Virus record (IMG/VR): IMGVR_UViG_3300029288_000118
Location: 1-64,000 of that record
From: a virus
Lineage: Duplodnaviria > Caudoviricetes
DNA: 64,000 nucleotides
Direction: 5' to 3' (one strand)
In this document: piece after piece, positions 11,341 to 28,627 of the stretch
How the letters are laid out: the number at the start of each line of letters is the position of its first letter
Numbering within the stretch: the first letter of the stretch is position 1
Translations under genes and position numbers: made by a program
The notes under the pieces: model-generated
Told to the model about the DNA's origin: nothing
The model's input: the letters and a program-made list of their open reading frames with translations, nothing else
Database searches by the model: none

Positions 11341-11862
11341 TTGGATACAACGACACATAAGGAATTAGTTCAAGTAGCTGTTAGCTGGTTGAGGAATATC
11401 ATGAGGTGCGGAGTGGTATTCAAAGAATTTAAGACAGCTATTTCAGAGATACCGGACGCGTTTGGGCTGAAAAGCGATTATAGTATACTCATTGAGTGCA
11501 AAGCATCTCGTGCAGATTTTTTGTCAGACAGAAGTAAGGTATTCAGACAGTTACCAGATCGTGGAGTGGGAGACTTTAGGCTATACCTATGCAACACGGG
11601 GATAATAAAACCAGAAGACTTGCCGGACAAGTGGGGATTATTGTATTATGATCAAATAAGAAATAAAGTAGATCGTATAAAAACGCCGAAAGGAAATGCC
11701 TGGTTACATTCGGGGGAACTATTCAGATTTGATAAGAACAAGAGAGCTGAGTACCGATATATGTATAGTGCTCTGAGAAGGATCGTGATACACGGAGACC
11801 TGGACTTAATTTACGAACCAATAGATATCAGGAAGGTATACGAAGCAAATGGTAGAGTATAA
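11341..11862 (+). CDS. PD-(D/E)XK nuclease-like protein (MmcB-like)
   Basis: EIPDAFG...LIECKASRADFLSD...GDFRLYL...DLPDKWGLL. Confidence 0.75.
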   Translation: MDTTTHKELVQVAVSWLRNIMRCGVVFKEFKTAISEIPDAFGLKSDYSILIECKASRADFLSDRSKVFRQLPDRGVGDFRLYLCNTGIIKPEDLPDKWGLLYYDQIRNKVDRIKTPKGNAWLHSGELFRFDKNKRAEYRYMYSALRRIVIHGDLDLIYEPIDIRKVYEANGRV

Positions 11863-12979
11863 AGATGTGATATTTCTGGGACCTGAATCATTTGAAAAAT
11901 CGATTGCTCATTTAGCTGGGGAGCAACATCACTTTATTGAATTGCAAAAGCTGGAGACTCTGCTTTATTCGGAATTCGATTTAAAGACAATGTATGAAGA
12001 GCTGATTAAATATGTGAACAAGGAATTCCCGGAAAAGACGGCTAAGAGTATCTCACTGAAGGAACTTCAAAAGATAGACGAGTTTGTAAAGAGCCTTACC
12101 CTGAACAAGATCACAAAAATTGAACAGTATATTGTTCGGGCTTTTGTGGTAGGCAACATAATTGAAGAACGACAGGGAAGTATAACGAGTATCATCAAAC
12201 CGATAGAAATGAATCTCAATCGATTGCCGGAAACAATTAAGAACGCTGTAAAGGAATACAGGTTGACACCGAGACAGATAGAGGCAGTGAATGTCAGCCT
12301 GAGCCACAGCGGTCAGCATTTAACATCCGCAACAAACGCAACTATCAATCGAGTGCAGAGTTTAACTACCGATAATATAATAAAAGGCGGTACGAGGAAA
12401 GAACTGGCTAATCTTCTGAGAGAGGAATTCACCAGCAAGGATAAAGAGATTAACCGGAATTGGAATCGTGTAGCAATCAATGAAATATCGTATGCGTATA
12501 ATAACGGATATCTGGCAACAATGAAACCCGGTCAATGGGTGATCGGAGTATCCATGCCGGATAGATGTGATTCTTGCGGAGCACTGATAGACGGTAAAGT
12601 ATATTATTTCTCAAATGTAACCAACCAGGATATGAAGCATGATGATCTGGATCCTCAGAGTAAGGAATATTCACGCAGGGCATGGTTATCAGAAAATACA
12701 GTATGGTTGTATAAAGACAATTATGGGCGGAGCGCAGCAAAGCGGAAGCGGACTGAAGAAGGGCTGAAAGATCGAGAGAGGCATGAAATGAATGTGCCAG
12801 CTTGCCCGTTGCATGTGCATTGCCGATGTGTTTGGTCCCGCTTTAATCCCGATTATCAATATGTCGAAAAAGGCGGGATAGTTAAAATGAAAGCGATGAA
12901 TGAAAAGGAGTGGAAGAAGTTTTATGATACGAAGATCCAACCAATGAAAGAAAAACTAAAAGAATATGGAATAATATAA
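11849..12979 (+). CDS. Head morphogenesis protein (MuF/SPP1 gp7-like)
   Basis: RNWNRVAINE...CDSC...CPLHVHCRCVW. Confidence 0.8.
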   Translation: MVEYKDVIFLGPESFEKSIAHLAGEQHHFIELQKLETLLYSEFDLKTMYEELIKYVNKEFPEKTAKSISLKELQKIDEFVKSLTLNKITKIEQYIVRAFVVGNIIEERQGSITSIIKPIEMNLNRLPETIKNAVKEYRLTPRQIEAVNVSLSHSGQHLTSATNATINRVQSLTTDNIIKGGTRKELANLLREEFTSKDKEINRNWNRVAINEISYAYNNGYLATMKPGQWVIGVSMPDRCDSCGALIDGKVYYFSNVTNQDMKHDDLDPQSKEYSRRAWLSENTVWLYKDNYGRSAAKRKRTEEGLKDRERHEMNVPACPLHVHCRCVWSRFNPDYQYVEKGGIVKMKAMNEKEWKKFYDTKIQPMKEKLKEYGII

Positions 12980-12991
12980 AAGGAGAAAGCC

Positions 12992-13717
12992 ATGCCAACA
13001 CCAGACGAAACGAACATCCCTTATAAACCTTCAATTGAAGAAATTGAAAAACTAAAAGATGCTGGGTATCTACTGGAGATCAAGCCAGATGGATCAGTAA
13101 TGATAAGCGGAGCTACTGTATTAACAAAAGAAACCAAAGACCGTTTATTAAAAATGTCAGCAGATTTAGCAACTGCCTGTTTCAATGCAAAAAATTATAA
13201 CAAGCAGTTTTCTGCCGAATGGGCAAAGTATGAAATTCCAGATGATACGCCATTTGTGCATCGATGTGATTTTCTCAGGGCGGTGATATTAGAAGTTGGC
13301 AAAGATGTTTTATCATTAAAAAAGCATAAAGATATTGATATTGACTCTCCGGAAAAAGTGGAACCTCTTGGAGAGATAATGGCCAACATCATGCTTGCCT
13401 ACCGTCACCTGGAAGATGCAAGAATGAGAATAGGCAAAGTAATTCAAGCCTATGAAGGCGGGACATCTAAATATGATCGATTTGAATATTGCAATATATG
13501 GGTAAACAATATTCCTATTCAATGGACCGCGAAAGAAATATCCTATGAAGAAATCATACGGCTGGCGGGATTAGAATCTGACGGGAATCTCGAAGTGAAA
13601 TATACTCATGGAGCATTCTTTGATAAAGCGGGAGAAATACCTAAAGAGTATGGAGAAAAGAAAAAGGTACACTTAGTAGACGGTATGGTATTTACAGTGC
13701 AACCTAAAAATAAATAA
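12992..13717 (+). CDS. Fusion of helical hairpin (Acb2/Tad1-like?) and C-terminal multi-ubiquitin-like domain
   Basis: LAYRHLEDARMRIGKVI; C-terminal IWVNN..IQWTAKEISYEEIIRLAG...VKYTHG...VHLVDGMVFTV. Confidence 0.6.
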   Translation: MPTPDETNIPYKPSIEEIEKLKDAGYLLEIKPDGSVMISGATVLTKETKDRLLKMSADLATACFNAKNYNKQFSAEWAKYEIPDDTPFVHRCDFLRAVILEVGKDVLSLKKHKDIDIDSPEKVEPLGEIMANIMLAYRHLEDARMRIGKVIQAYEGGTSKYDRFEYCNIWVNNIPIQWTAKEISYEEIIRLAGLESDGNLEVKYTHGAFFDKAGEIPKEYGEKKKVHLVDGMVFTVQPKNK

Positions 13718-14312: not shown

Positions 14313-15257
14313 GTGATGTCAAAAGTAATTAGATTCTTGGAAAGAATGAACGCGCAATTACTTTGTTTGCGCAGTAAGATACAGCCTAAAAATCTGGCGA
14401 ACAATCCCATGCTGATATTTGCGGATTTGGGATTGGGTGATTTGCTGATGTTTTTACCGACAATAAAAGCAATATACGAGCGCGGTGCATGGGATACGAT
14501 ATATTTCAGGACAGAAAGAGCAGAAGCAATCGAGGTCTTAAAAGGGATATTTCCAAGAGCGCGGTTTATAACTCCATACGAGAATAAAAACGGGAATGCA
14601 AGATTTATCGGCTATGAGAGAGCATTGCTCCAATATAAGTTTGGAATCGCGGTTGTAAACTTTCATCAGGCGTATAAATCGAATATCTTACCAATGGTAA
14701 AATTGAGAATTCCGATCACAATTGGACATTCCTGGCCAGAGAATAAATACCATTCAATCTGGACGGATCCAGTGGAATACAATAAGGAGTATTATCAGGT
14801 AGCAGAGAATTTAAAATTGCTAATTCCATTAGGATTATATGAGAAGCACAAAGAGAGCAAGATGTTTTTTCACACTCAACCTTTTAAAATTCCGTATGAG
14901 AAATATGTTCTTATCCAACCAGCATCGAGCACCGTGCGGGAAAAGAATTGCTGGGATGTTGAGGCGTATGTAAGAAACATAAATGGACCTATCATCTTTA
15001 CCGGCAATGCTGAGGAAGCCCGTATTGCAACTAATATCATGTGCAACAATCCTCATTCGACTATTTTTAATTATTGTGGTAAGTTAAACATTTTTCAAAC
15101 AGCCTATTTGATAAAGAAAAGCAGTCAATTCCTGTGCAACGAAGGTGGACTTGCTCATTTGGCATCGGCTTTAAACGTGAGAGCAGATGTGTTTGTTAAC
15201 ACGAAAATAAAGCGAGAGCAAATATATCACAAGAATTTAAACTATATCTTTGTGTAA
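14313..15257 (+). CDS. Glycosyltransferase family 9 (heptosyltransferase-like)
   Basis: GLGDLLMFLPTIKAI...YVLIQP...NYCGKLNIFQTAYLIKKS...CNEGGLAHLASAL. Confidence 0.85.
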   Translation: MMSKVIRFLERMNAQLLCLRSKIQPKNLANNPMLIFADLGLGDLLMFLPTIKAIYERGAWDTIYFRTERAEAIEVLKGIFPRARFITPYENKNGNARFIGYERALLQYKFGIAVVNFHQAYKSNILPMVKLRIPITIGHSWPENKYHSIWTDPVEYNKEYYQVAENLKLLIPLGLYEKHKESKMFFHTQPFKIPYEKYVLIQPASSTVREKNCWDVEAYVRNINGPIIFTGNAEEARIATNIMCNNPHSTIFNYCGKLNIFQTAYLIKKSSQFLCNEGGLAHLASALNVRADVFVNTKIKREQIYHKNLNYIFV

Positions 15258-15548: not shown

Positions 15549-18500
15549 ATGAATACACTATATTTTGCCAAGTCCACGAGTGGAATGATTCACAGGGGAA
15601 GCGTTCTCACTCCCGAACCAACTGCCAGCAATCAAACACCAGTTATAGCCAAAGATTTTGAGACTTTCCAGCATGGAGAAGATTTATATCTTCTTGCGGA
15701 TAAGGAACCGCTGGAATTTATTGGATCTCTCCAAACGTCGACCGGCCAGGAATATTATTTCCAAAAGTCAAATATCACATATCGATATAACTCCAATTTT
15801 GAGCTGATAGAACTGAGTCCTAATTGGCTTAAAAAGGGAATAGCAACAAACAAAGGGATAGTAATTGAACTCGGTGACGATCTGGCGATCTGCAAAAACG
15901 GTGAAGGTGAAAAGCTATATTTTAAAAAATCATTACTCCCGATAGAAACCAACCTGGAGTTAGCACTGCAAGAGAATGAAGCAATAATCTACAGAGCAAG
16001 ACTCCATAAGTCTTTAACAGCAACGACACCGGAGATAAAGCAAGGAGCACCTAAATTCAGGGTATCGTTTGCCAGCCCGAAAGCCCAGATAGTACCTACG
16101 CAGGAACACACCGAAGGTGAAACGCGACAGTTTGGTCCTAATGATCTCCGGCAACTATCGAGAGGTAAAGCCGGACAATTAAGATGGCTCAGTATTGACG
16201 AAAAGGCGAAACTCCAGCAAGCCAAACAGAAAGCACAGGCAGAAGAAAGTAAGCAAAAAGAAAGGACAAAATATGCTGAAGGTATTAATACTGGTGGACG
16301 GATCGGAACACTTAGCAAGCTATTTAGAATCGGTAAAGAAATATTTGTCGGCGGAAGAAAAGCAGAAGTCATTGACTATGGAGACGATGTTATTGCGGTT
16401 AGAAAGGATGATGGAACAACTACCACTGTTAGAGCCAGTGAATATAATCCCGAACGACAGCAACCGGAAAAAGTTGTTCCAAAGAAGACAACAGAGACTC
16501 CAGAAGAACTTGCCAAAAAAGAACGGGAGACCAGAGAGGCAAAGACAAGACTTGAGACTGATATTCATTCACAGACACCGAGAAATAAATATTACGATGA
16601 GCAACAAGCGATTATCAAAGAACAAGAACAATTGCCGGAATATCAGACATTCCAGTCCGAGAACGAAAAAGAGGGATGGACGAAAGATATAGCGACACCA
16701 TTCAGATTTGTAAAGGACATTTCATTTGTATCCTCAATGGGAAACCTCCGCAGCGGGACTGCCGAGAAAGTGTGGAGACCGGAAAAGAAGGATTATGATT
16801 ATTACTTTGAGGGCGAAGGCTTTAATGTCACCTATCAGGGCAAAGATTATCGAATAGTAGGGATGGATCAAGACAAGATAGATATCAAGGATCAATTTGG
16901 AAACAAACAGACGATAAAAAACAACGAACTTGATCAATACAGGGGTCAGATAATCCTGGACGCTGAAGGCAATGCGAGAATCAAGAATATACAGGGTGAA
17001 GAATTTTCACTCGAACTTGTTGAGGGACTTAACCAGGAAGATTTATTTAAAGAAGGGATAGTCAAGATTATCAAGGATGAAGTTTGGAAATCGATCAAGA
17101 CAGGCGAAGGCGCAGTAGTTGACGATGTAAAGCTCGGTAGAATCCGGAGAGGGGTTACATTCTACAAACATGGTAACGAGGCGGGTATTATCGATGAAAA
17201 CAAACATGCGCACCAGGTAGCGAAGAACGACGTAAAGAGAGACCTACCCGAACCGGACGAAAAAATAAAAGCAATTCAAATTGAGGTAAAGAAGGAACAT
17301 CAGAAACTTGACAAACAAAATCTTGAACGACAAGACCTTGAAATTGTAAAAGCTCGAGTACTGCACGGGAATCAAAACGTGCCGTATGCACAAAAAGGCA
17401 AAGACCTTGAGCCGGAAAAATACAGAGACGTATTCGACAACTGGCTGAAAGATGGAGGAGAGGGAATAGATGAGCAGATAGCGGGAAGCTATACGAACCC
17501 TGAAGAATGGAAAGCCAACGTCTTATCACTGGCCGAAAGAATGAGAGCAGAGGATATAAAGAGAGCAAGCGAAGTTCAGGCAATGAACGATTTTGCGAAA
17601 TCCGGAGTAGTGATAGAAGCACCGAAACCCAAAGAGATTGAAGCGTATATCGAAACGGCAAAAGATATTTTGATGTCCAGGCGCAAAGACTTCTTACGGT
17701 CAAAGCAAGTAGAGAAAGACGAGGGTGCTAAATTCCAATGGGACGATCTTGCAGAGTTACCAGCAACGGAAAGCGGATCCCTTGTATCGGATAACGTAAA
17801 AGTGATAAGGGATAGCCGGAATGAATCTTACCAGGTGCAATATGCTTTTGTGCCTAAACAGAATATAGTGACATCGAACGACATTTCAGGCAAAACGAAT
17901 CCTGAGCATCCAAGTGAATTACAAGCGAGAGAACGCAGTCAGGATGAAGCCAGTACCTTACAGATGAAAAAAATAGCTGAGAATCCGAACGAAGAGCTGG
18001 TAGAGGATAATAAGGATGCAACGAGAGGTGCACCAGTAGGCTTTACGAAGGACGGGAAGGTTTATATCGTGCAGGGCAATGGCCGTACTGGAGCTGTATT
18101 GGGTATGGAAGGAGCTGGCAAGGAAAAATATTTTGGAATGATGTTGCAGAAAGCTCAAGAACTTGGAATTCCAACCGATAAGGTCACAGATGATATGATG
18201 CTGGTTAGAACTTTATCTCCGGTCCATACATACGAGGATGCCCGTAAGCTCGGTGCATTCGGTCAGAAGTCTTCAGCATTGCCCATGACAGAGGTAGAGG
18301 AAGCCCGCAGTTTTCAGAATGCGCAGCGGTTAAAATTTGGATTGAACCTGAATCTTACGGGAATCGGTCGACGGTCAATAAACGAAAAGAATGTAGGAAC
18401 ATTTATTCGTAACAATCCGCAGGTATATCAGAAGATACTCAAACTCAGTGGTTACGATCCGATAGCGGTTCAATACCGGCCAGCGGAACAAGCAAAGGTA

Positions 18501-21500
18501 GTCAATACTGCATTACTTGCTCAATTGGATAAAGATTTTATACGCACGGTGAGTAAAAAGGGAGAAGACACACACGAACTCGTGAAAGTGACCGCACCGA
18601 TCATAGCAGATAATCAAAAAGATATCGCAGAAGGCAGTGTGCCACCTAATGGTGATATCCAGAAATTTTTAAAGAATGCCATTGATCATTATGGTACGTT
18701 GAATAGCACGGTAAAGAACTCTTTGAAAGTAGACAAGAACGGCAATATACCATTCCTGGAGACCGGAGAGCAAGGGCGCAAGAATCCGGATAGCCTTATA
18801 TCTCGGATGAGACAAGAAACAATCGAATTCGGGGACAAGAAAAGCGGTAACATATTCCGGAATCCAGTGAACGTTATTGGAATGATTGCTTATCATCAGG
18901 CAATGACTCCCAGAGATCCAGAGAAAAAAGATCAAGCGCGGGAATTATTCGCGCTGAAGATGAAGCGATTCGCGGACGCGATGAAGACACTTAAAGAGAA
19001 GGCGCAACAAGGCGGGGATATATTTGCAGCCCAGTTGAGCGAAGAAGAGCAAACGCGACAACAGCAGGAAGATATCATTAAAATAGCAGAGAGAGTATTC
19101 CTGGAGAATAAGCCTTACCGGGAAGAAAACCCAGAGGAAATGACAGCAGAAGAAAAAGAAGCTGGCAAAGAGACGTATAATGCATTTAATGTCTACAAAC
19201 GGATGAGAGATGTATCACAGGAATTTCAGTTTGAATTAGAACACCACAAACTCAAAAAATCGTTGTTAGGATACTTCTTTAAGTCTATTATCCAAAAGCA
19301 ACACGGTGAATTAAAGCAGTTCAAAACGGATCAGATGAATCTATTTGGAGCACCGGAGGAAAAGCATAATATAGGGGACATAAAGATAGAGAACGGAATT
19401 AAATATACTCTGCTTGAGACTACGATAGGAAAGCCCAGATGGCATACTGAAGCCGAGATAGAGGCGATGAAGAAACAGAAACAAATTCAACCGAAGCCAG
19501 AAGAACATAAACCCGAAACAAAGCCAGTCTCTAAAATTCCATTCACCAAACTGAAACCTGAAGTAAAACAGGAACCGCAGCAATCCAAAAGAGCAAAAGG
19601 GGAATTCTATAAAGTAGATGATGATATTGTAGGTGAAATTCATAAGATGGAAGGATTTAACGATACTCACGGTATTAATGCAAACGTATTCGCAGAGAGA
19701 GTTGAAGTAATCAAAGGATTCTCAAAAGAGAAAAGATATTTCCCGCAGATAAAAGACTATGAGAATGAAGAGACAATCACAATAGGCGATACAAGGAAAG
19801 GCTATAAATCTCTTTCAGAAGCAAAAAAGGCATTGAAAGAAGAACTTGCAACCTATCTTAAAAACAATGCTGAGAATATTAAAAAGCATTATGGAAGCGA
19901 GTATGTTGAAATCAAGTCAGAAGATAAAGAGGAAAAACCAACGTCAAAACCGATTCGCACTGAAGCATATCGGAAGAGACAACAAGATATTGACAATATG
20001 AAAAAAGGGGTTGAAATAACGAAAGATCATATTGAATCACTTACCGATGCCGTAGAAAATCCAGCATGGGAAGCATCGAGGAAAGAATATCCTGAGAGGG
20101 CAGAAGATTTTATTAAGCAGTTAAAGGAAGCGAAAAAAACACTTGCAAAAGAGGAAAAGGAATTAGCAGAGATAGAGAAGGTTCATGCGAGAGAAACCGA
20201 AATAGAAAACAGGCAGGAACCACTATTTGCAGAAAAGCAAAAAGCGGAAGCGCAGGCAAAGAATAAAAAATTATCAGGCGAGTTATTATCTGAATTCAAA
20301 GACGGTAAATATTCAGGGGTAGAGTTTAAAGCACTTGGGATTGCTAAAGATATTAAAGAATATAAATGCTCAATGATTATCGGAAAGAAGCTGGACGCGA
20401 AAAATAATAGCGAAAAACTAAAACAGCTTGCAGCACTCTCGCAGATATACCGGGATCCAAGATTTGAGACATTCAGAATAATATATACAAAGGGAGATAA
20501 GATAGTTGGACACACGGGGATTACTTTAAGACTTCCAGGTTCGACCTTGATAGTCCCGCCAAATATAAAAGGCAAAGATGTCTATAAACACTATCAAATA
20601 GAGATGGAGAATCTGAAAGCCGATGGAATGTACTTTGTGCATAATCATCCTTCTGGTCATGTCACACCGTCTATACATGATATTACGGCAACAAAAGAAA
20701 TAGCAAAGAACTTAGGAGATAAATTCAAAGGGCATGTAGTAATAGATTCCAATATTTACTCAACGATTGATAAGGACGGATATGTTGACGAGGAATTAGC
20801 TATACCCACCGAAGAAGAAAAAGAAGATGTGCTGACAACGCCAAGCATTCCGCACGATATTTTAGGGGAAAAGATTTTTGATCCCGCTGGGATAGCGACA
20901 ATAATGAGAAAACACAAATTGGACATAGAAGATGGAAAAAGCAAAATAGTAATAGCATTGGATGCGTATAATAAGATTAGAGGAATAATAGTGGTAGATA
21001 AATATCTACTGCTTGATAAAGAGAAAGCGAAAGACATATTAAGGAGAATATCAGTCCAGTCTGGATGTCAATCTCTGTTTATCGCGGGTATTGAAGATCA
21101 GTATAACAAAGAAGAAGATTTTACTTCCAGTAATGCCAATATCAGAGATTTATATAAAGAGAATTTTATACTCGATGTTGTTTCAAAAAGAGGGAATTCA
21201 TTAATGATGGGGACGGGAATTATGAGGAATCCCGACAGTGATCCATTCGGAGTTAAAGAGGAATCAAGGCAACTTGTGAAGTCAATCTTCCGATTCTTTA
21301 AGTCTCAAATGGATATGTTTGGAGCACCGAAGCAACCGACACAGCCAAAACCTGAAGGTGGAATATCCTGGAAAGCGTTAGGACAAGAAAAACCAGGACA
21401 TAAATACATACGCAGGGAAAGAGGCAAGACTGGAGAATGGGTATACTACTACAAGGACGCACAAGGCAGGGAATTCAAGGGAGACGCGAAGGGCAAAGAG

Positions 21501-22964
21501 CTTTCGAAACATCATGACTGGAATAAAGGTGATGTAGTTATACACGACGGCAGAAAGTATGAGCTTGGTAAATTCGGCGATACAATGGCAACCATTGTTA
21601 GTCAAAAAGGAGAAGTCAAAGCTGTGAGGATAGCCGAACTCACGCACGAAGCCGAACACCAAAAGAAATTAGTGACCGAACACGAAACCAAATGGGATAG
21701 ATTAGTATCAGCATTGGAAGCGGATGTAGCACAATTTGACAAAACTGGAAAATCTATAAACTTCCCAGAAGACAAGAAATTTGAATTGCAACGAAAGTTA
21801 AAATATGCAAAAGAAGAAAGAGATAAGAGAAAAGTTAACAAACAGAATTCCCCCAACGTCGCTTCCGACGACGTTATCCCCAGCGAACCTGGTTTGGTCC
21901 CTGCAACCAAGCCAGGTTCTTCCTCTAAGAAAGTAGATCAGACCGAAACGCCAGAATTCAAGAAGTGGTTTGGAGATAGTAAAGTAGTTGATAAAGAGGG
22001 AAAGCCGAAAGTAGTATATCATGCCTCTACTGAGAACTTTAAGGAATTTGATACAAGTGCAGAGGGAGCACATTTCGGGACTGAAGAACAAGCGTTAAAT
22101 CTTAAAAAAGCCGGAAAGAAAAAACCAAAGGCATTCTATCTTTCTATAAATAATCCCTTACGCATGGATGATGTTGGAATATGGAATGATTTTAATGGAA
22201 TCCATGCCAGACTCGCGAACGAAGATAAAATAACAGCAAAAGAAGCAGATGAAATATGGGATGAATGGCAAAAAACCGATGAGAAAGGATGGAGTAAACT
22301 TAAAGAAGTTTTGAAAAGAAAAGGTTATGATGGATTCGTTTATGCAAATGAGCAAGAAGGTGAAGGCGATTCTTATGTAGCCTTCTCTCCAGAACAAATT
22401 AAATCAATTGAGAATAAAGGAACATTTGATCCCAACACTGGAGACATAACGAAATCCGTTTCAACCTTTTTTAAGCAACTTACCAAAGCCCGTAAAGAGA
22501 CCGATACCGAACCTACTGAAGCACAGAAAGAAGCCGGAAATTATGCAAAAGGCAAATTAGAACTTTATGGGTTAACTATCAGTATAGAAAATCCGAAGGG
22601 AAGTATTCGTAGAGGAAAAGATAAAAATGGCACTCCCTGGAAATGCAAACTTAGAAATGATTACGGATATATACTCGGTACGGTAGGAAAAGACAAGGAT
22701 CATCTCGATGTATTTTTAGGTAAAGATATTAATGCTAAGAATGTCTATATCGTGAATCAACAAGACCCAGAGACAAAGGCATTCGATGAACACAAAATAA
22801 TTCTATTAATGCCAAACAAAAGAAAAGCCATCAAGGCATATAAATCAAATTATGCAGACGATGCAAGCAAAAGGATAGATAGTGTTACTGAAATGACCAT
22901 TGAAGAATTTAAAAAATGGATTGAGAACGGAAATCATAAAGAGAAAGCAATAGTCCAGTGTTAA
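15549..22964 (+). CDS. Giant polyvalent protein: ddrB-like ParB, JAB/RadC-like, ART-PolyVal and inorganic pyrophosphatase-like domains
   Basis: ParB: HPSELQARERS...GAPV...QGNGRT (~17830-18300); JAB: E...HNHPSGHVTPSIHD (~20420-20790); ART: TPEFKKWFGDSKVVD...VYH...GYDG...QIKS (~21940-22450); InPase: PTEAQKEAGNY...IENPKGS...YGYI...DHLDVF...FDEHK (~22490-22960). Confidence 0.85.
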   Translation: MNTLYFAKSTSGMIHRGSVLTPEPTASNQTPVIAKDFETFQHGEDLYLLADKEPLEFIGSLQTSTGQEYYFQKSNITYRYNSNFELIELSPNWLKKGIATNKGIVIELGDDLAICKNGEGEKLYFKKSLLPIETNLELALQENEAIIYRARLHKSLTATTPEIKQGAPKFRVSFASPKAQIVPTQEHTEGETRQFGPNDLRQLSRGKAGQLRWLSIDEKAKLQQAKQKAQAEESKQKERTKYAEGINTGGRIGTLSKLFRIGKEIFVGGRKAEVIDYGDDVIAVRKDDGTTTTVRASEYNPERQQPEKVVPKKTTETPEELAKKERETREAKTRLETDIHSQTPRNKYYDEQQAIIKEQEQLPEYQTFQSENEKEGWTKDIATPFRFVKDISFVSSMGNLRSGTAEKVWRPEKKDYDYYFEGEGFNVTYQGKDYRIVGMDQDKIDIKDQFGNKQTIKNNELDQYRGQIILDAEGNARIKNIQGEEFSLELVEGLNQEDLFKEGIVKIIKDEVWKSIKTGEGAVVDDVKLGRIRRGVTFYKHGNEAGIIDENKHAHQVAKNDVKRDLPEPDEKIKAIQIEVKKEHQKLDKQNLERQDLEIVKARVLHGNQNVPYAQKGKDLEPEKYRDVFDNWLKDGGEGIDEQIAGSYTNPEEWKANVLSLAERMRAEDIKRASEVQAMNDFAKSGVVIEAPKPKEIEAYIETAKDILMSRRKDFLRSKQVEKDEGAKFQWDDLAELPATESGSLVSDNVKVIRDSRNESYQVQYAFVPKQNIVTSNDISGKTNPEHPSELQARERSQDEASTLQMKKIAENPNEELVEDNKDATRGAPVGFTKDGKVYIVQGNGRTGAVLGMEGAGKEKYFGMMLQKAQELGIPTDKVTDDMMLVRTLSPVHTYEDARKLGAFGQKSSALPMTEVEEARSFQNAQRLKFGLNLNLTGIGRRSINEKNVGTFIRNNPQVYQKILKLSGYDPIAVQYRPAEQAKVVNTALLAQLDKDFIRTVSKKGEDTHELVKVTAPIIADNQKDIAEGSVPPNGDIQKFLKNAIDHYGTLNSTVKNSLKVDKNGNIPFLETGEQGRKNPDSLISRMRQETIEFGDKKSGNIFRNPVNVIGMIAYHQAMTPRDPEKKDQARELFALKMKRFADAMKTLKEKAQQGGDIFAAQLSEEEQTRQQQEDIIKIAERVFLENKPYREENPEEMTAEEKEAGKETYNAFNVYKRMRDVSQEFQFELEHHKLKKSLLGYFFKSIIQKQHGELKQFKTDQMNLFGAPEEKHNIGDIKIENGIKYTLLETTIGKPRWHTEAEIEAMKKQKQIQPKPEEHKPETKPVSKIPFTKLKPEVKQEPQQSKRAKGEFYKVDDDIVGEIHKMEGFNDTHGINANVFAERVEVIKGFSKEKRYFPQIKDYENEETITIGDTRKGYKSLSEAKKALKEELATYLKNNAENIKKHYGSEYVEIKSEDKEEKPTSKPIRTEAYRKRQQDIDNMKKGVEITKDHIESLTDAVENPAWEASRKEYPERAEDFIKQLKEAKKTLAKEEKELAEIEKVHARETEIENRQEPLFAEKQKAEAQAKNKKLSGELLSEFKDGKYSGVEFKALGIAKDIKEYKCSMIIGKKLDAKNNSEKLKQLAALSQIYRDPRFETFRIIYTKGDKIVGHTGITLRLPGSTLIVPPNIKGKDVYKHYQIEMENLKADGMYFVHNHPSGHVTPSIHDITATKEIAKNLGDKFKGHVVIDSNIYSTIDKDGYVDEELAIPTEEEKEDVLTTPSIPHDILGEKIFDPAGIATIMRKHKLDIEDGKSKIVIALDAYNKIRGIIVVDKYLLLDKEKAKDILRRISVQSGCQSLFIAGIEDQYNKEEDFTSSNANIRDLYKENFILDVVSKRGNSLMMGTGIMRNPDSDPFGVKEESRQLVKSIFRFFKSQMDMFGAPKQPTQPKPEGGISWKALGQEKPGHKYIRRERGKTGEWVYYYKDAQGREFKGDAKGKELSKHHDWNKGDVVIHDGRKYELGKFGDTMATIVSQKGEVKAVRIAELTHEAEHQKKLVTEHETKWDRLVSALEADVAQFDKTGKSINFPEDKKFELQRKLKYAKEERDKRKVNKQNSPNVASDDVIPSEPGLVPATKPGSSSKKVDQTETPEFKKWFGDSKVVDKEGKPKVVYHASTENFKEFDTSAEGAHFGTEEQALNLKKAGKKKPKAFYLSINNPLRMDDVGIWNDFNGIHARLANEDKITAKEADEIWDEWQKTDEKGWSKLKEVLKRKGYDGFVYANEQEGEGDSYVAFSPEQIKSIENKGTFDPNTGDITKSVSTFFKQLTKARKETDTEPTEAQKEAGNYAKGKLELYGLTISIENPKGSIRRGKDKNGTPWKCKLRNDYGYILGTVGKDKDHLDVFLGKDINAKNVYIVNQQDPETKAFDEHKIILLMPNKRKAIKAYKSNYADDASKRIDSVTEMTIEEFKKWIENGNHKEKAIVQC

Positions 22965-23562: not shown

Positions 23563-23868
23563 ATGAAACCAATTAGTTCATATCCGAAGCAAGAACATCA
23601 GCCAGGATTCGTAGTGTGGGAGCTGGATCATCAGGACGGTCAGCGTAGACTCGAATTCTTTTGTGAAGCCTGTGGCTATAATCATTTTTTTGATGAACGC
23701 TGGATGTGGAATGGTGATTATGTGAAACCGACGTTTTATCCAAGCCTATTGGTCAACGGTCATACTCCGAGCATGAAATGTCATAGTTTTGTGACCGACG
23801 GCGAAATTCATTACCTGGCTGATTGTTTTCACGGTTTTAAAAATCAGCGTATACCGCTAAAACCATAA
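23563..23868 (+). CDS. DUF6527 family protein
   Basis: FFCEACG..H...WNGD..KPTFYPSLL...CHSFVTDGEI..LADC.H. Confidence 0.75.
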   Translation: MKPISSYPKQEHQPGFVVWELDHQDGQRRLEFFCEACGYNHFFDERWMWNGDYVKPTFYPSLLVNGHTPSMKCHSFVTDGEIHYLADCFHGFKNQRIPLKP

Positions 23869-24070: not shown

Positions 24071-27000
24071 ATGAGTAATATTCCATTTAATTATTTAAAA
24101 GTATCACAAACACAGTATGAGATGCCAGAGCCAAATAATATATGGAGATTTTTAAAAAGCCAATTAGGCTTATTTGCTGGATCTCCGCAAAAGCAAGCTC
24201 CGATGCCGGCCAAACCTAAAAATATTCCATTTGCATCTCAAAAGCCGAAAGAAAGTCCTAATATCGGAGACGTGAAAGTTGAAGGTGATCATAAATATAT
24301 ATTTTTGGAAACGACTATTGGCAAACCGAGATGGCATACTCATGAAGAACTTCTCCAGATGGTAAAAGAGGGCAAACAGGTACCCGAGATAGCAAAAAAG
24401 AAAATGCCAATGCTTCAAACGCGGGAAGAAAGCAAGAAACCCGTTTCGATCACGGGCGAAGAAATCAAAGTAGGAGATTATATCTATTATGGGAGAGATC
24501 CACGAGAACAAGGATTCAGCGAAAAGCAAATAAAACCGCATGAACTAAAAAAGGTAACGGGGTTTAAAGATATCGGTGGAGGGATACATCCTACCTGGAA
24601 GCCGGATAAAAAAGTTAATAAATATGATAAAGGCTATAATTTTTCCGCAAAAGAATACAGCATCATTAAGGACGCAGAAAAATTTATAAATCCAGATAAA
24701 TCGAAAAAAGAAGACGAGACTAAACAAGCGATGGAATTAGGCAAGAAAGCATTTCAAGCTGGAGGCATACGCACTCCCAGCCTTGACAAAGAATTAATGA
24801 AGATGCTTGAAGGTGCGCAGGTAGGTGAAAAAACTCATGTGCTGGAAGCCTGGAATAAGGGTTGGGATCAGGAAAATCTCAAAAAGCCAGAAGAAGAACC
24901 GAAGCAAACTGAAATCCCATCTGAGAAACTAAGCAAACCGAAATTATCCGCTGAAGAACAATATGTCCAAGATCAAATTAAAAAGGGAGACCTGGAAACG
25001 GCTATTAAACGACAACAGGGAATGAGAAAAACTGAATATACTGAAGACCAGCAAGCTAAAATAAATGATCTCAATAAGTTGATGCAACGTAGAGCGCAAC
25101 TCCAAAGAGAGATAGATGCACCGTTGACAGCAGTTAAAGACGTAGAAAAAGGTGGTCAGAAATTTGAGGTTGACACCAAAAAATATGCAAAGAGGGAAAT
25201 GAAGTATCTTGACAAGCGTATAGGTGCATTAAAGCAGGAACTTGGAAAACTGGGAGAAAACTTATTTGAGACTCAGGAAGACATATTCTCACAGGCAACT
25301 CCAGAGCCGAAAGATCAATTATCAGAGAATATCAATAAGCAAGTAGAAGAACAAAAGAAAAAGGAAGCACCGTCTTTAAAAACCCTAATGGCTACACAAT
25401 CGGAAGTATTAAAACTTGCAGCAATACCAGAAGAAGATATACCGATGTACGCGTTAAACTCTATGGCCGATGGAGCAAAATTACGATCGTACTCTACTGA
25501 AGTTATCAAGGGAGAAATCACGATTCAACAGGCAGCGGACAAGGTGAAGAATGACTATACAAAGATGAAAGAGGGGGAGAAGCCAACAAATGTTGCTCCG
25601 TTACCGTCGACGGAGAAAAAAGAAATATGGCAAATGACGAAAAACGAATATGCAAACAGTAAAGAAAACTTAGACGAGTACACTGACGCAATAAAAAATC
25701 CACCATTAGCAGGCGAAGGCACTATGGAAAGAAGTGCTGGAATTTTAGGAGCAAGTAAAGAAGAGGCAATTAAGAGCGGTGAACGTATGCACAAGATGGA
25801 AGTAAAAAATGCACTTAAAGAAGGGAAAGAAGTTCCATCTGAAGTTCTTAAAGATTATCCAGAACTTGAAAAAGAATATAAAGATACTCTCCCTCTCCGG
25901 CCAGAGGATAAGGATTCCAAAGAAGGGGATATCAAGACTATCAATGGAATTCAGTATCAATTGAAGCGCGGTGAAAGCGGTGAACTCCGGTGGCATAGGG
26001 TAACAGGAAAAGAGGAAAAAGAAGCATGGCAGACAGGAAGGGACGAATATGCTATTTCCAAAAATTCTCCAAAACCTGAAATAGAAATAGGAGACATTTC
26101 TTTCCATCAGTTAAGTAAGATGTCAGAAAGAGCTAAAGCAGAAACGACGAAAAAGCGAGTAGCCGAACGAAAAATAGCAAAAGAAAAATACGATAATGCA
26201 ACTAAAGAGTGGGAGGACAAGATATGGGATGCTTATCGGCAAGGAAAATTTTCGGCAAACGATGTTTATGATACAGACGCATTTTATGTATTAAATGAAA
26301 GATTAACAAAAGAAGGTATAGACATTGACTCTCCATTCAAGATAAGCCAGAAAAACGAAGATGAAAGATCAAAATATTTGTCAGGGATTGACAATACTGC
26401 AAAAGGTAAATTTACAGAAAAGCAATCCGAACCCGTTGTAATCCCGCGTCAAGAAGCCATCGAAGAGCATGAGCATTTAATGGAAGTACTCGAGAATGGA
26501 ACTGAAGAAGAACGTAAAGCAGAGGCCGAAAAGCAAGCAAAAGAACTCAAAGAGTATAAGGGCGAATCGCTGAAGGAAAAAGTAGAAGAACGATTGAGTG
26601 AGAAACAAGCTGGGAAAAAATTCAAAGACGTAGGTACTCGAGTAGGCGGAAGCCGGAAAGAGATTGCCGCAATTCGAGTATTGACCGCAGGTGATCTGGA
26701 TAAACTTGATAATGCTACAGCTTACAGAGTAGTAACGAAAGAAAGAATATTACCAGATATTAATCCTCAAGCAGAGAAGGATAATGGAGTAGAGAGTGGA
26801 GCTGCATACATGAAGAAGAAACTCCGTGAATCTGTAAATGCCAAACCGCCTAATACCCCAGAAGACCGAAAGAAATTTGTTGAACTGACTCCAAAGATAT
26901 TTGAGAAAATCGATGCAGCAAAAACAATTGAAGATATTCGTACGATCGGCAACGAAGACTTTGAGACATTTATGGACTGGGGAAGCCGTAAGCGTGTAAC

Positions 27001-28627
27001 TTTTTATAAGCATGAAGATTATAAAAGCGATGTAAGCCGATTACTTGGCAAAGAGTTTTTAAACCTTATTGGTCGCAATAGTGATTCAGCAAAAAAGCAC
27101 TGGAGCGATGCGGTGTTAATGAATTCTTTTAACGAAGAGACGGCGAAAGAACAGTATAAAAAGTATGCTGAAGGAAGAAAAAATGTTGTTGAGATGAATA
27201 AAAAACGGATGGATGAATATACAGCGGAACAGTGGGAGCGTTATTTTAAGACGGATCCGATGACAACGATGTCATTTACGAGGAAGCAACTTACAAGTGA
27301 AAAACAAAACAATCCTGAGAAGTACCAACAAGCTATCGAAGATTATAAGGCAAGAGAATATAAATCGAATGAACGGCGAAACGAACCAATTACTTATGAA
27401 GAGTGGTTGGATAAGAGACCACAATATAAACCGAGAGAAGCTGACTGGAGCTGGGCGGAGGCTAAAGATAAAAAAGTTATTGAAAGACGTAAAGCGGAAT
27501 TAAAGATACATGATAATCCGCCTTTGGCGTTTATCAAGCGCACAAATGGAAGACAAGTGCTTAATTCAGATATCACGGTAGAAGCGATAAAAGATAAATA
27601 TGGATTTAAGAGCGTTCAATTTGGCCACTATGTTAAAGATGTTGAAGCTCAGGAGCATGTGAGACACTTTATTGAGAGCATGAATGATCTGGAAGATGCA
27701 CTGGGAATTGATATAAAAAAAATGAATCAACTTTCAGGACTGAGTATAGCGTTTGGTGCACGGGGTTCCGCAGGAGCACTTGCTCATTATGAACCGATGG
27801 CCAAGATAATAAATATCACTAAGACCAGAGGTGATGGAACGATATGCCATGAACTATTCCACAACATTGATCATCTATTAGGCGGGATGGAAGAAGGCAC
27901 AAGAAAAGAGAAAATTTATCTCTCTCAACAAGGAATTGGGGGTTACGAACGAACAAAAGAGAACGACATACTAAACAAGCGCAAACTCCGAGTAGCAATG
28001 AACGATGTAATGAATGCTATTAAAAAGGGAACAAACGAAAAGAAACTTAATTTTGAACCAGGCGGGAATAAATATACATACGGGAGTATAAGAAATAAGT
28101 TTGAAACCGAAGGATATGAGGCAACGAGAGAATACCTAATGAAATATGCGAAGGATCCAGATGAGCTTGGAAGAGCTGAAGACTATTTTAAATATCTTTC
28201 GACATTGGCAAATAAACCAATTGAAGTAATAATACCTACCGGACGAACAAAATATTATGATTCAGCAATGCAGTTTAACAGTAAATACTGGCAAAGGGAT
28301 CAAGAACTATTCGCGAGAGCAGCGGAGGCGTACGTGCAAGATAAATTAATAGGGAGCAGGATGTATAATAACTACCTGGTAGCTGGTAACAATATTCAAC
28401 AACCGGACAAAAAATGGGAATCTGGATCACTGGAAATCACTTATCCGCAGGGAGAGGAAAGAGTGATTATCAATGAAGCGTTTGACAAGCTCCTGGAAAC
28501 AGCGAAAAGCGAACTGAATATTGGATTAGAAAAGAAAAGGGAAGGTAAAAGAGTATCGAGCGAAGTACAGATGCAAAAGAGTTTATATAATCCAAACATT
28601 TTTAAATCACTCTTCAGGAGAATATAA
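24071..28627 (+). CDS. Large polyvalent protein: LPD5-like, zincin metallopeptidase and LPD1-like domains
   Basis: FKDVGTRVGGSRKE; YGFKSVQFG...LSIAFGARG...AHYEP...HELFH; YW...ELFARAAEAYV...YPQGEER. Confidence 0.8.
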   Translation: MSNIPFNYLKVSQTQYEMPEPNNIWRFLKSQLGLFAGSPQKQAPMPAKPKNIPFASQKPKESPNIGDVKVEGDHKYIFLETTIGKPRWHTHEELLQMVKEGKQVPEIAKKKMPMLQTREESKKPVSITGEEIKVGDYIYYGRDPREQGFSEKQIKPHELKKVTGFKDIGGGIHPTWKPDKKVNKYDKGYNFSAKEYSIIKDAEKFINPDKSKKEDETKQAMELGKKAFQAGGIRTPSLDKELMKMLEGAQVGEKTHVLEAWNKGWDQENLKKPEEEPKQTEIPSEKLSKPKLSAEEQYVQDQIKKGDLETAIKRQQGMRKTEYTEDQQAKINDLNKLMQRRAQLQREIDAPLTAVKDVEKGGQKFEVDTKKYAKREMKYLDKRIGALKQELGKLGENLFETQEDIFSQATPEPKDQLSENINKQVEEQKKKEAPSLKTLMATQSEVLKLAAIPEEDIPMYALNSMADGAKLRSYSTEVIKGEITIQQAADKVKNDYTKMKEGEKPTNVAPLPSTEKKEIWQMTKNEYANSKENLDEYTDAIKNPPLAGEGTMERSAGILGASKEEAIKSGERMHKMEVKNALKEGKEVPSEVLKDYPELEKEYKDTLPLRPEDKDSKEGDIKTINGIQYQLKRGESGELRWHRVTGKEEKEAWQTGRDEYAISKNSPKPEIEIGDISFHQLSKMSERAKAETTKKRVAERKIAKEKYDNATKEWEDKIWDAYRQGKFSANDVYDTDAFYVLNERLTKEGIDIDSPFKISQKNEDERSKYLSGIDNTAKGKFTEKQSEPVVIPRQEAIEEHEHLMEVLENGTEEERKAEAEKQAKELKEYKGESLKEKVEERLSEKQAGKKFKDVGTRVGGSRKEIAAIRVLTAGDLDKLDNATAYRVVTKERILPDINPQAEKDNGVESGAAYMKKKLRESVNAKPPNTPEDRKKFVELTPKIFEKIDAAKTIEDIRTIGNEDFETFMDWGSRKRVTFYKHEDYKSDVSRLLGKEFLNLIGRNSDSAKKHWSDAVLMNSFNEETAKEQYKKYAEGRKNVVEMNKKRMDEYTAEQWERYFKTDPMTTMSFTRKQLTSEKQNNPEKYQQAIEDYKAREYKSNERRNEPITYEEWLDKRPQYKPREADWSWAEAKDKKVIERRKAELKIHDNPPLAFIKRTNGRQVLNSDITVEAIKDKYGFKSVQFGHYVKDVEAQEHVRHFIESMNDLEDALGIDIKKMNQLSGLSIAFGARGSAGALAHYEPMAKIINITKTRGDGTICHELFHNIDHLLGGMEEGTRKEKIYLSQQGIGGYERTKENDILNKRKLRVAMNDVMNAIKKGTNEKKLNFEPGGNKYTYGSIRNKFETEGYEATREYLMKYAKDPDELGRAEDYFKYLSTLANKPIEVIIPTGRTKYYDSAMQFNSKYWQRDQELFARAAEAYVQDKLIGSRMYNNYLVAGNNIQQPDKKWESGSLEITYPQGEERVIINEAFDKLLETAKSELNIGLEKKREGKRVSSEVQMQKSLYNPNIFKSLFRRI

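Follow-up and report, generated by a model that had tools for sequence, protein, structure and literature searches.

Bacterial operons of the Bub family, which encode a ubiquitin-like conjugation pathway, have been described in two types (PMC11601596; bioRxiv 10.1101/2024.11.21.623966). A function in immunity or stress has been proposed for them, and their discoverers found no phage that is restricted by Bub (PMC11601596). The modifier of the pathway is BubA, and host BubA proteins also include forms that consist of an N-terminal helical or coiled-coil extension and a single beta-grasp domain (bioRxiv 10.1101/2024.11.21.623966). Furthermore, a catalytic Ser-His pair has been reported for the associated BubE, and BubA of Escherichia coli ZDHYS365 forms BubBD-dependent conjugates in vitro (PMC11601596). 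Here, we describe P0001, a gene that encodes a BubA-like domain fused to a helical hairpin, within a stretch of 64,000 nucleotides (the window) from a virus of the Caudoviricetes (positions 1 to 64,000 of IMG/VR record IMGVR_UViG_3300029288_000118). The complete source record, rated as such by CheckV, comprises 93,986 bp. The most coherent reading of our results, to which we assign a probability of roughly 40%, is that P0001 imitates the BubA of the host, is fused to a hairpin and is aimed at the Bub pathway.

A phage protein with a BubA-type beta-grasp domain

The open reading frame (ORF) of P0001 (12992-13717, plus strand) encodes 241 amino acids, in which the ORF list, the translation and an AlphaFold2 model delineate a variable N-terminus, a conserved helical hairpin, and a BubA-like beta-grasp. 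Its start lies 12 nt downstream of the stop of the preceding gene, with AAGGAG 7 nt 5' of the ATG, and its C-terminus reads ...MVFTVQPKNK, so that the translation agrees with the first-pass annotation of this DNA in placing an ORF without a terminal Gly at these positions. The AlphaFold2 model, based on an alignment with 27 homologues, has a mean predicted local distance difference test score (pLDDT) of 78. It contains a small alpha/beta unit (residues 15-39) and a long, poorly predicted helix (residues 46-80), both within a variable N-terminal region (residues 1-85; 12992-13246, plus strand; pLDDT 46-84) that is poorly conserved and has no counterpart in the other aligned homologues. A two-helix hairpin follows (residues 88-111 and 120-154; pLDDT 84-96), which belongs to a segment delimited by alignments of a family from uncultured phages and closing with a conserved GG-x-S-x-Y-D tail (residues 86-162; 13247-13477, plus strand). 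The remainder of the protein (residues 163-241; 13478-13714, plus strand) harbors a single beta-grasp (residues 165-238 in the model) with an aberrant tail, ...FTVQPKNK.

The last 79 residues of P0001 are a BubA-type beta-grasp. The Multi_ubiq family PF14452 scored 23.4 bits (E-value 6.7e-5) on the full protein and 25.0 bits on the translated window, compared with a cut-off of 24.5 bits, while a homologue with two beta-grasps, P0012, reached 37.6 bits. In a Foldseek search against the PDB, the three best matches of the beta-grasp were multi-ubiquitin/BubA structures (9cd2 and 8u38), the best being 9cd2 (probability 1.00, E-value 5.2e-4, 28% identity over 76 columns), and 9d5b and 9d5a ranked lower. 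VIA-align gave Z-scores of 9.3 to 9d5b (root-mean-square deviation 2.4, 69 residues aligned) and 9.1 to 9cd2, with deviations of 2.3-2.4 over 69-70 residues for these two structures, as well as 8.1 to BubA(155-229) in 9eav. Moreover, nine Type II BubA proteins have a last beta-grasp to which the domain aligns over its full length, with 25-32% identity and with IxVNG, LA, Y, G, and GMxF in common. The C-terminal multi-ubiquitin beta-grasp proposed from the sequence alone is thus borne out by a Pfam score near the cut-off, the AlphaFold2 model, Foldseek, and VIA-align, and the likeness to BubA of Type II Bub (PF14452; PDB 9cd2, 9d5b, 8u38) lies in the fold and in the pattern IxVNG...LA...Y...G...GMxF. 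P0001 differs from BubA in that it is encoded by a phage, has no adjacent BubBD, and carries as its N-terminal partner a phage-specific hairpin family.

Searched on its own, the beta-grasp domain did not match BubA among PDB sequences with phmmer, and a word-based search returned only its own cluster and a sister phage. Neither the P0001 beta-grasp nor a host BubA matched any of 50,697 GenBank phages by tblastn, a pattern scan of IMG/VR confirmed no further BubA-like domains, and the fusion of a hairpin to a ubiquitin-like domain was not found in the bacterial species genomes that were searched.

The C-terminal tail in comparison with host BubA proteins

For comparison with hosts, BubA proteins were taken from a sample of 401 genomes from the phylum of a Bacteroidota metagenome-assembled genome (MAG), 19 of which encode Multi_ubiq above the cut-off. 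The sample contains Type II Bub operons, consisting of Multi_ubiq (BubA), a 391-amino-acid DUF6791+ThiF protein (BubBD), and DUF6527 (BubE), as well as Type I operons, in which Multi_ubiq+Prok-E2_E occurs with Prok-JAB+ThiF. The host BubA proteins that we aligned belong to bona fide Type II Bub operons. It is this system, with BubA, BubBD, and BubE, that matches the phage genes, and not Bil, which the first-pass annotation had named.

All nine Bacteroidota Type II BubA proteins (among loci L104-L114) end in ...GM[IV]FN[VA]TxT[DN][KQR]S, so that their last residue is Ser rather than Gly and stands eight residues after the Phe of the motif (F+8), whereas Type I examples have a terminal Gly (L111) or are fused to E2. 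BubA of E. coli ZDHYS365 (PDB 9cd2), for which conjugation by BubBD is described above, has the C-terminus ...GMIFYVTQTDKS, i.e., ...TDKS. The nine tails and the conjugated Ser-ended E. coli protein together indicate that Type II Bub natively uses a terminal Ser at F+8 as its reactive end. Therefore, the earlier argument that P0001 cannot be conjugated because it lacks a terminal Gly fails, since Ser is the last residue of authentic BubA from Type II operons and the E. coli protein is conjugated (PMC11601596). That Type II BubA proteins are Ser-ended also matters for any screen that recognizes conjugatable ubiquitin-like proteins by a terminal Gly.

The oddity of the P0001 tail is its length and its last residue, rather than the absent Gly. 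While host Type II BubA proteins end in ...FN[VA]TxT[DN][KQR]S at F+8, the phage relatives P0004-P0006 (...FNVADTSNA) and the first and second domains of P0012 (...FTVVDERKA and ...FNAGFTGNA) also end at F+8, each with Ala as the last residue. P0001 and its sister, however, end in ...FTVQPKNK at F+7 with a terminal Lys. This tail has a Pro at position -4, differs from that of every host BubA in the sample, and, being one residue shorter than BubA and ending in Lys instead of ...TDKS, is not of the BubA type. Judged by length and residue type alone, the shorter tail, the Pro, and the Lys end make P0001 look unfit for activation, which may not hold for its Ala-ended relatives.

A BubE homologue in a phage without conjugating enzymes

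The phage also encodes a homologue of BubE, P0288 (DUF6527; 101 amino acids; 23563-23868, plus strand), which is the likely functional partner of P0001. The assignment is based on PF20137 (32.1 bits; cut-off 23.6), phrog_3362 (E-value 8e-23), an alignment with host BubE, and a complex model. P0288 contains PS at residues 60-61, CHS at residues 73-75 (a Ser-His pair), and four Cys, and P60, S61, and H74 are invariant in an alignment with six host BubE proteins. It resembles BubE of Bub operons in its Pfam match, the PS and [CS]H pair, the Cys ligands, and the predicted binding of a beta-grasp. In contrast to host BubE, with which it shares 16-25% identity, it stands alone beside polyvalent-protein genes and is devoid of the N-terminal FVEFIP.

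Throughout the 93,986-bp phage, one Multi_ubiq and one DUF6527 domain were found, the latter approximately 10 kb from P0001, and a profile search of this complete genome revealed neither ThiF nor DUF6791 (E1/E2), in line with the earlier expectation of a phage without E1 and E2. The presence of a BubA copy and a BubE homologue without a conjugating enzyme makes interference with a bacterial ubiquitin-like pathway probable, and what had been suggested in this respect from the sequence alone is also the most coherent reading of the beta-grasp in a phage without E1 and E2.

Genes similar to P0288 occur in 286 of the 50,697 GenBank phages, mostly phages of Salmonella, Klebsiella, and Escherichia, but also of Shigella and Pseudomonas, and tblastn detected no BubA-like gene in these phages. 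Thus, the protease is widespread in phages, while the modifier copy is rare. The GenBank relatives of P0288 are labelled as hypothetical or misnamed, e.g., as 'anaerobic dehydrogenase', and we found no mention of DUF6527 or BubA in phages in the literature examined. A second lineage with both genes is represented by the distant phage L002, which encodes P0012 (36% identical to P0001, with a hairpin and two beta-grasps). This contig has one DUF6527 gene above the Pfam cut-off and another that scores 22.1 bits against 23.6, and the trio of polyvalent, DUF6527, and LPD1 genes seen in the present phage recurs there near P0012. Within about 10 kb of 80 hairpin-bearing IMG/VR loci, tblastn found no P0288-like gene, and a beta-grasp was likewise present in none.

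A model of the complex between the P0001 beta-grasp and P0288 scored 0.62, the best of 3 controls scoring 0.19. Among solved complexes, 58 of 80 attain this mark, as do 2 of 110 mismatched pairs, although these counts apply only roughly here, since the author's own alignments were used. Contacts overlap by at least 83% between the model runs, the partner pLDDT is at least 79, and the region of Ser61 and His74 of P0288 lies inside the predicted interface. The model thereby supports binding of the beta-grasp by P0288 without demonstrating it.

A conserved hairpin family of uncultured phages

The hairpin of P0001 is a widespread, strongly conserved, unnamed domain of uncultured phages. The motif LAYRHLEDARMRIGKVI at residues 135-151 forms the core of a near-invariant helix with the consensus ANIMLAYRHLEDARMRLGK, and the consensus of helix and tail reads ANIMLAYRHLEDARMRLGKVxQAxDGGxSxYD. 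At an E-value of at most 0.001, the family comprises 1,052 representative clusters, mostly stand-alone proteins of 80-130 amino acids, one of which was folded with a pLDDT of 91.7. Members were found in at least 80 IMG/VR contigs and in 15 MAG contigs assigned to Bacteroidota, the Planctomycetes-Verrucomicrobia group, Fibrobacter, and others. No tblastn match was obtained in the 50,697 GenBank phages, and PHROGs yielded no match for P0001 or for 40 stand-alone relatives.

The first-pass annotation had likened the middle of P0001 to the helix of Acb2/Tad1-type nucleotide sponges, and this resemblance is partly upheld. The motif is present, and PF24729 (Acb2_Tad1_hairpin) is the sole recurrent Pfam family of the hairpin, matching 71 of 130 members at an E-value below 1 (best 9.1e-5), compared with 3-4 matches for the next most frequent family. 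Hairpin helix 2 aligns to PF24729 positions 33-56, which correspond to the helix ...IAKTKLKEASMWACRAV of T4 Vs.4. As these are the profile positions of Acb2 helix 2, the helix pattern named in the first-pass annotation is genuine. Furthermore, ESM Atlas neighbours of the hairpin include clusters that are partly annotated with PF24729. However, all of the PF24729 matches remain below the 27-bit cut-off (best listed 21.3 bits, compared with 71.4 bits for T4 Vs.4), and P0001 itself has none. Hairpin members match approximately positions 12-56 of the profile only, whereas residues 7-83 of Vs.4 span positions 1-58, and no counterpart was matched in them to the GY segment in the N-terminal part of the profile, which we take to be the ligand-contacting segment of Vs.4/Acb2.

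Profile-profile and profile-PDB comparisons were not significant. With alignments of the hairpin family, no Acb2 or Tad1 chain was retrieved from the PDB at an E-value of 10 or below, and hhalign against T4 Vs.4 alone or the Vs.4 family gave a probability of about 1%, pairing hairpin helix 2 with helix 1 of Vs.4 rather than helix 2. In the fold check of each half that had been called for, the C-terminal half matched BubA, while a stand-alone hairpin, searched with Foldseek (PDB, BFVD) and VIA-align, returned only generic hairpins (Z 8-9, none outstanding), with Acb2 and Tad1 absent from its top 50 fold matches. Since a two-helix hairpin is generic, sharing this fold with Acb2/Tad1 carries little weight, and fold searches do not tell such hairpins apart. 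The family is similar to Acb2 (T4 Vs.4, PaMx33 p26) and Tad1 in size, two-helix form, and the helix 2 pattern [LI]AxxxL[EK][ED]AxM. It differs in scoring below the cut-off, in the unmatched N-terminal part of Acb2, and in its own conserved C-terminal GGxSxYD. On these sequence comparisons, we put homology of the hairpin to Acb2/Tad1 at roughly even odds. Sponge activity, for which the consistent sub-threshold Pfam matches speak, would be a rather improbable property of the hairpin. The family of small hairpins, with its more than 1,000 clusters, is confined to uncultured phages and appears to border on Acb2/Tad1.

Inspected by eye, the hairpin motif was also considered as MazG-like, HEPN, or encapsulated ferritin, but these readings were set aside, as the defining ExxE...ExxD, Rx4-6H, and ExxH patterns are absent. 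Among the longer members of the family, P0105 carries a RyR domain (PF02026, E-value 1.3e-12) in place of the beta-grasp, and P0087, P0111, and P0127 have unannotated N-terminal extensions.

Conservation of gene order and divergence of the beta-grasp

Directly upstream of P0001 lies a MuF-like head morphogenesis gene (11849-12979, plus strand; Phage_Mu_F E-value 0.002, phrog_595 E-value 1.2e-5). A MuF gene that is 70% identical likewise precedes the hairpin-beta-grasp gene at another locus, L117, although the beta-grasp encoded there is only 26% identical to that of P0001. The gene is thus kept in place while its mimic domain turns over fast. P0288, in turn, is encoded between a polyvalent protein of 2,471 amino acids with ddrB-ParB, RadC-like JAB, ART-PolyVal, and InPase domains (15549-22964, plus strand) and an LPD1 protein of 1,518 amino acids (24071-28627, plus strand), both assigned by Pfam. 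The domains of the polyvalent protein, a class described previously (PMC5512222), are likely head-packaged effectors.

The sister phage L001 is 92-98% identical to the present phage at the DNA level. Between the two versions of the gene, codons of the beta-grasp differ by 3 synonymous and 0 non-synonymous changes and those of the hairpin by 6 and 5, respectively, while the N-terminal 85 residues show 15 synonymous and 28 non-synonymous changes as well as indels. When compared with positions 10001-10192 of L001, these 85 residues represent a hot spot of change, with 55% identity, a deletion of 12 residues, and two shorter ones.

Possible roles of P0001

If P0001 is a BubA mimic, its beta-grasp would occupy the BubA-binding site of the dimeric BubBD of the host during infection. 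Its tail, with its F+7 length, Pro, and Lys end, could then be neither adenylated nor passed on, and within this proposed mechanism the conjugation of host BubA would thereby be blocked. The hairpin may oligomerise, by analogy with the hairpins of Acb2/Tad1, which would add avidity, and it possibly has a ligand of its own, while P0288 would strip BubA that has already been joined to phage proteins. The MuF/polyvalent neighbourhood suggests that P0001 may be produced together with early-acting injected proteins and perhaps packaged alongside them, and the fast divergence of the beta-grasp is as expected for a mimic that tracks its host. Eukaryotic viruses encode ubiquitin-like proteins and deubiquitinases, subverting conjugation with a copy of the modifier and/or a deconjugating protease. 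In contrast to these, the host here is bacterial, the pathway would be Bub with its oxyester chemistry, and the copy of the modifier is part of a fusion with a phage hairpin. Mimicry of BubA would be a new variant on counter-defence by mimicry.

Several observations weigh against mimicry of BubA. No restriction of a phage by Bub has been demonstrated so far (PMC11601596). DUF6527 occurs in many phages without a BubA-like gene, which means that the two genes need not cooperate. Within the modelled complex, the ubiquitin-like domain makes its confident contacts through the segment ahead of the beta-grasp (residues 163-168) and through residues 229-231, and not through the C-terminal tail, and the free end of the modelled fragment may have been placed at the interface artefactually. 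Furthermore, with their BubA-length tails and a small last residue, four relatives may act as substrates instead of dead-end decoys, and the evidence for selection rests on very few substitutions.

The relatives lead to a different explanation, in which the phage domain is a hijacked substrate that host BubBD activates and conjugates, resulting in depletion of the enzyme, a harmless tag on the targets, or attachment of the hairpin to proteins of the host or the phage. P0004-P0006 and both domains of P0012 retain the F+8 tail with Ala where BubA has Ser, and the Ser-ended E. coli BubA is conjugated by BubBD (PMC11601596), but the shorter, Lys-ended tail of P0001 with its Pro at -4 is unlike that of the host BubA proteins sampled, and we consider hijacking unlikely. 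The hairpin, on the other hand, could point to a two-in-one anti-defence protein, namely an Acb2/Tad1-like oligomeric nucleotide sponge to which the beta-grasp adds a second function or serves as a targeting module. Such a sponge would be consistent with PF24729 as the only recurrent Pfam family (71/130, best E-value 9.1e-5), its partial annotation of ESM Atlas neighbours, and the alignment of helix 2 to Acb2 helix 2 (profile positions 33-56), and a size of 80-100 amino acids, the restriction to phages, and charged residues that hardly vary (R, E, D, R, K, Q) would fit a ligand pocket. Given that all PF24729 matches fall short of 27 bits with none in P0001, that hhalign against the Vs.4 family yields 1% and no Acb2/Tad1 chain of the PDB appears at an E-value of 10 or below, that the N-terminal profile part containing the GY segment in Vs.4 is unmatched, and that fold searches cannot discriminate among hairpins of such a generic fold, this two-in-one role is doubtful.

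Two further explanations dispense with host Bub. As an ordinary structural or assembly accessory, P0001 would use its beta-grasp as a protein-binding module in head assembly beside MuF, in agreement with its start 12 nt after the MuF-like gene, the gene order retained in L117, and the common use of beta-grasp domains as adaptors. This is quite unlikely considering that the best matches are specifically BubA, including the GMxFxV tail motif, and not generic beta-grasps, that two phage lineages carry a BubE homologue as well, and that divergence is much faster in the beta-grasp than in the MuF gene beside it. In a self-contained phage module, P0288 would act on the phage's own hairpin-beta-grasp protein, for instance by cleaving the junction to release two products, and would have no anti-Bub role. 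Stand-alone hairpins indeed terminate at the junction point (...GGxSxYDK), and the complex model, whose score of 0.62 against 0.19 for the best control supports binding without demonstrating it, places junction residues 163-168 against the P0288 strand 60-66 that contains Ser61, with His74 near. However, the artificial free N-terminus of the fragment may explain this placement, the reported site of action of BubE is the C-terminus of the ubiquitin-like protein (PMC11601596), and no cleavage-site similarity was seen, which leaves a self-contained module as the least probable of these explanations.

For mimicry of BubA, the favoured reading, a more elaborate form can be envisaged, in which a non-transferable BubA mimic jams BubBD, the phage BubE strips BubA, and the hairpin oligomer constitutes a new branch of the Acb2/Tad1 fold. 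This two-part anti-Bub kit is a tentative proposal that we regard as rather unlikely in full. If true, it would mark the first case of counter-defence directed at a ubiquitin-like pathway of bacteria, and would furnish indirect proof of Bub as an antiphage system as well as indicate the phages that Bub restricts. A phage that carries a copy of a pathway's modifier and a deconjugating protease, but no ligase, is the type of evidence by which other immune systems were exposed through the counter-measures against them. Concrete reagents for tests are provided by P0001, the relatives that end in Ala, and the BubE homologues of phages (present in 286 cultured phages).

Other features of the phage

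Directly upstream of the MuF-like gene, a protein of 173 amino acids is encoded (11341-11862, plus strand) that belongs to phrog_631, a family of unknown function (E-value 1.5e-51), and also has weak matches to a 'DNA repair protein' PHROG. Between P0001 and the polyvalent protein lies a family 9 glycosyltransferase that is heptosyltransferase-like (14313-15257, plus strand; E-value 2.2e-12) and is present in the sister phage L001, too. A scan for promoters and terminators around P0001 performed no better than on shuffled sequence. The capsid protein is 26% identical to those of Bacteroides and SPO1-like phages. A Shine-Dalgarno-like motif precedes 38 of 59 plus-strand genes (background 19%) at a GC content of 38.5%, which sits uneasily with a Bacteroidota host.

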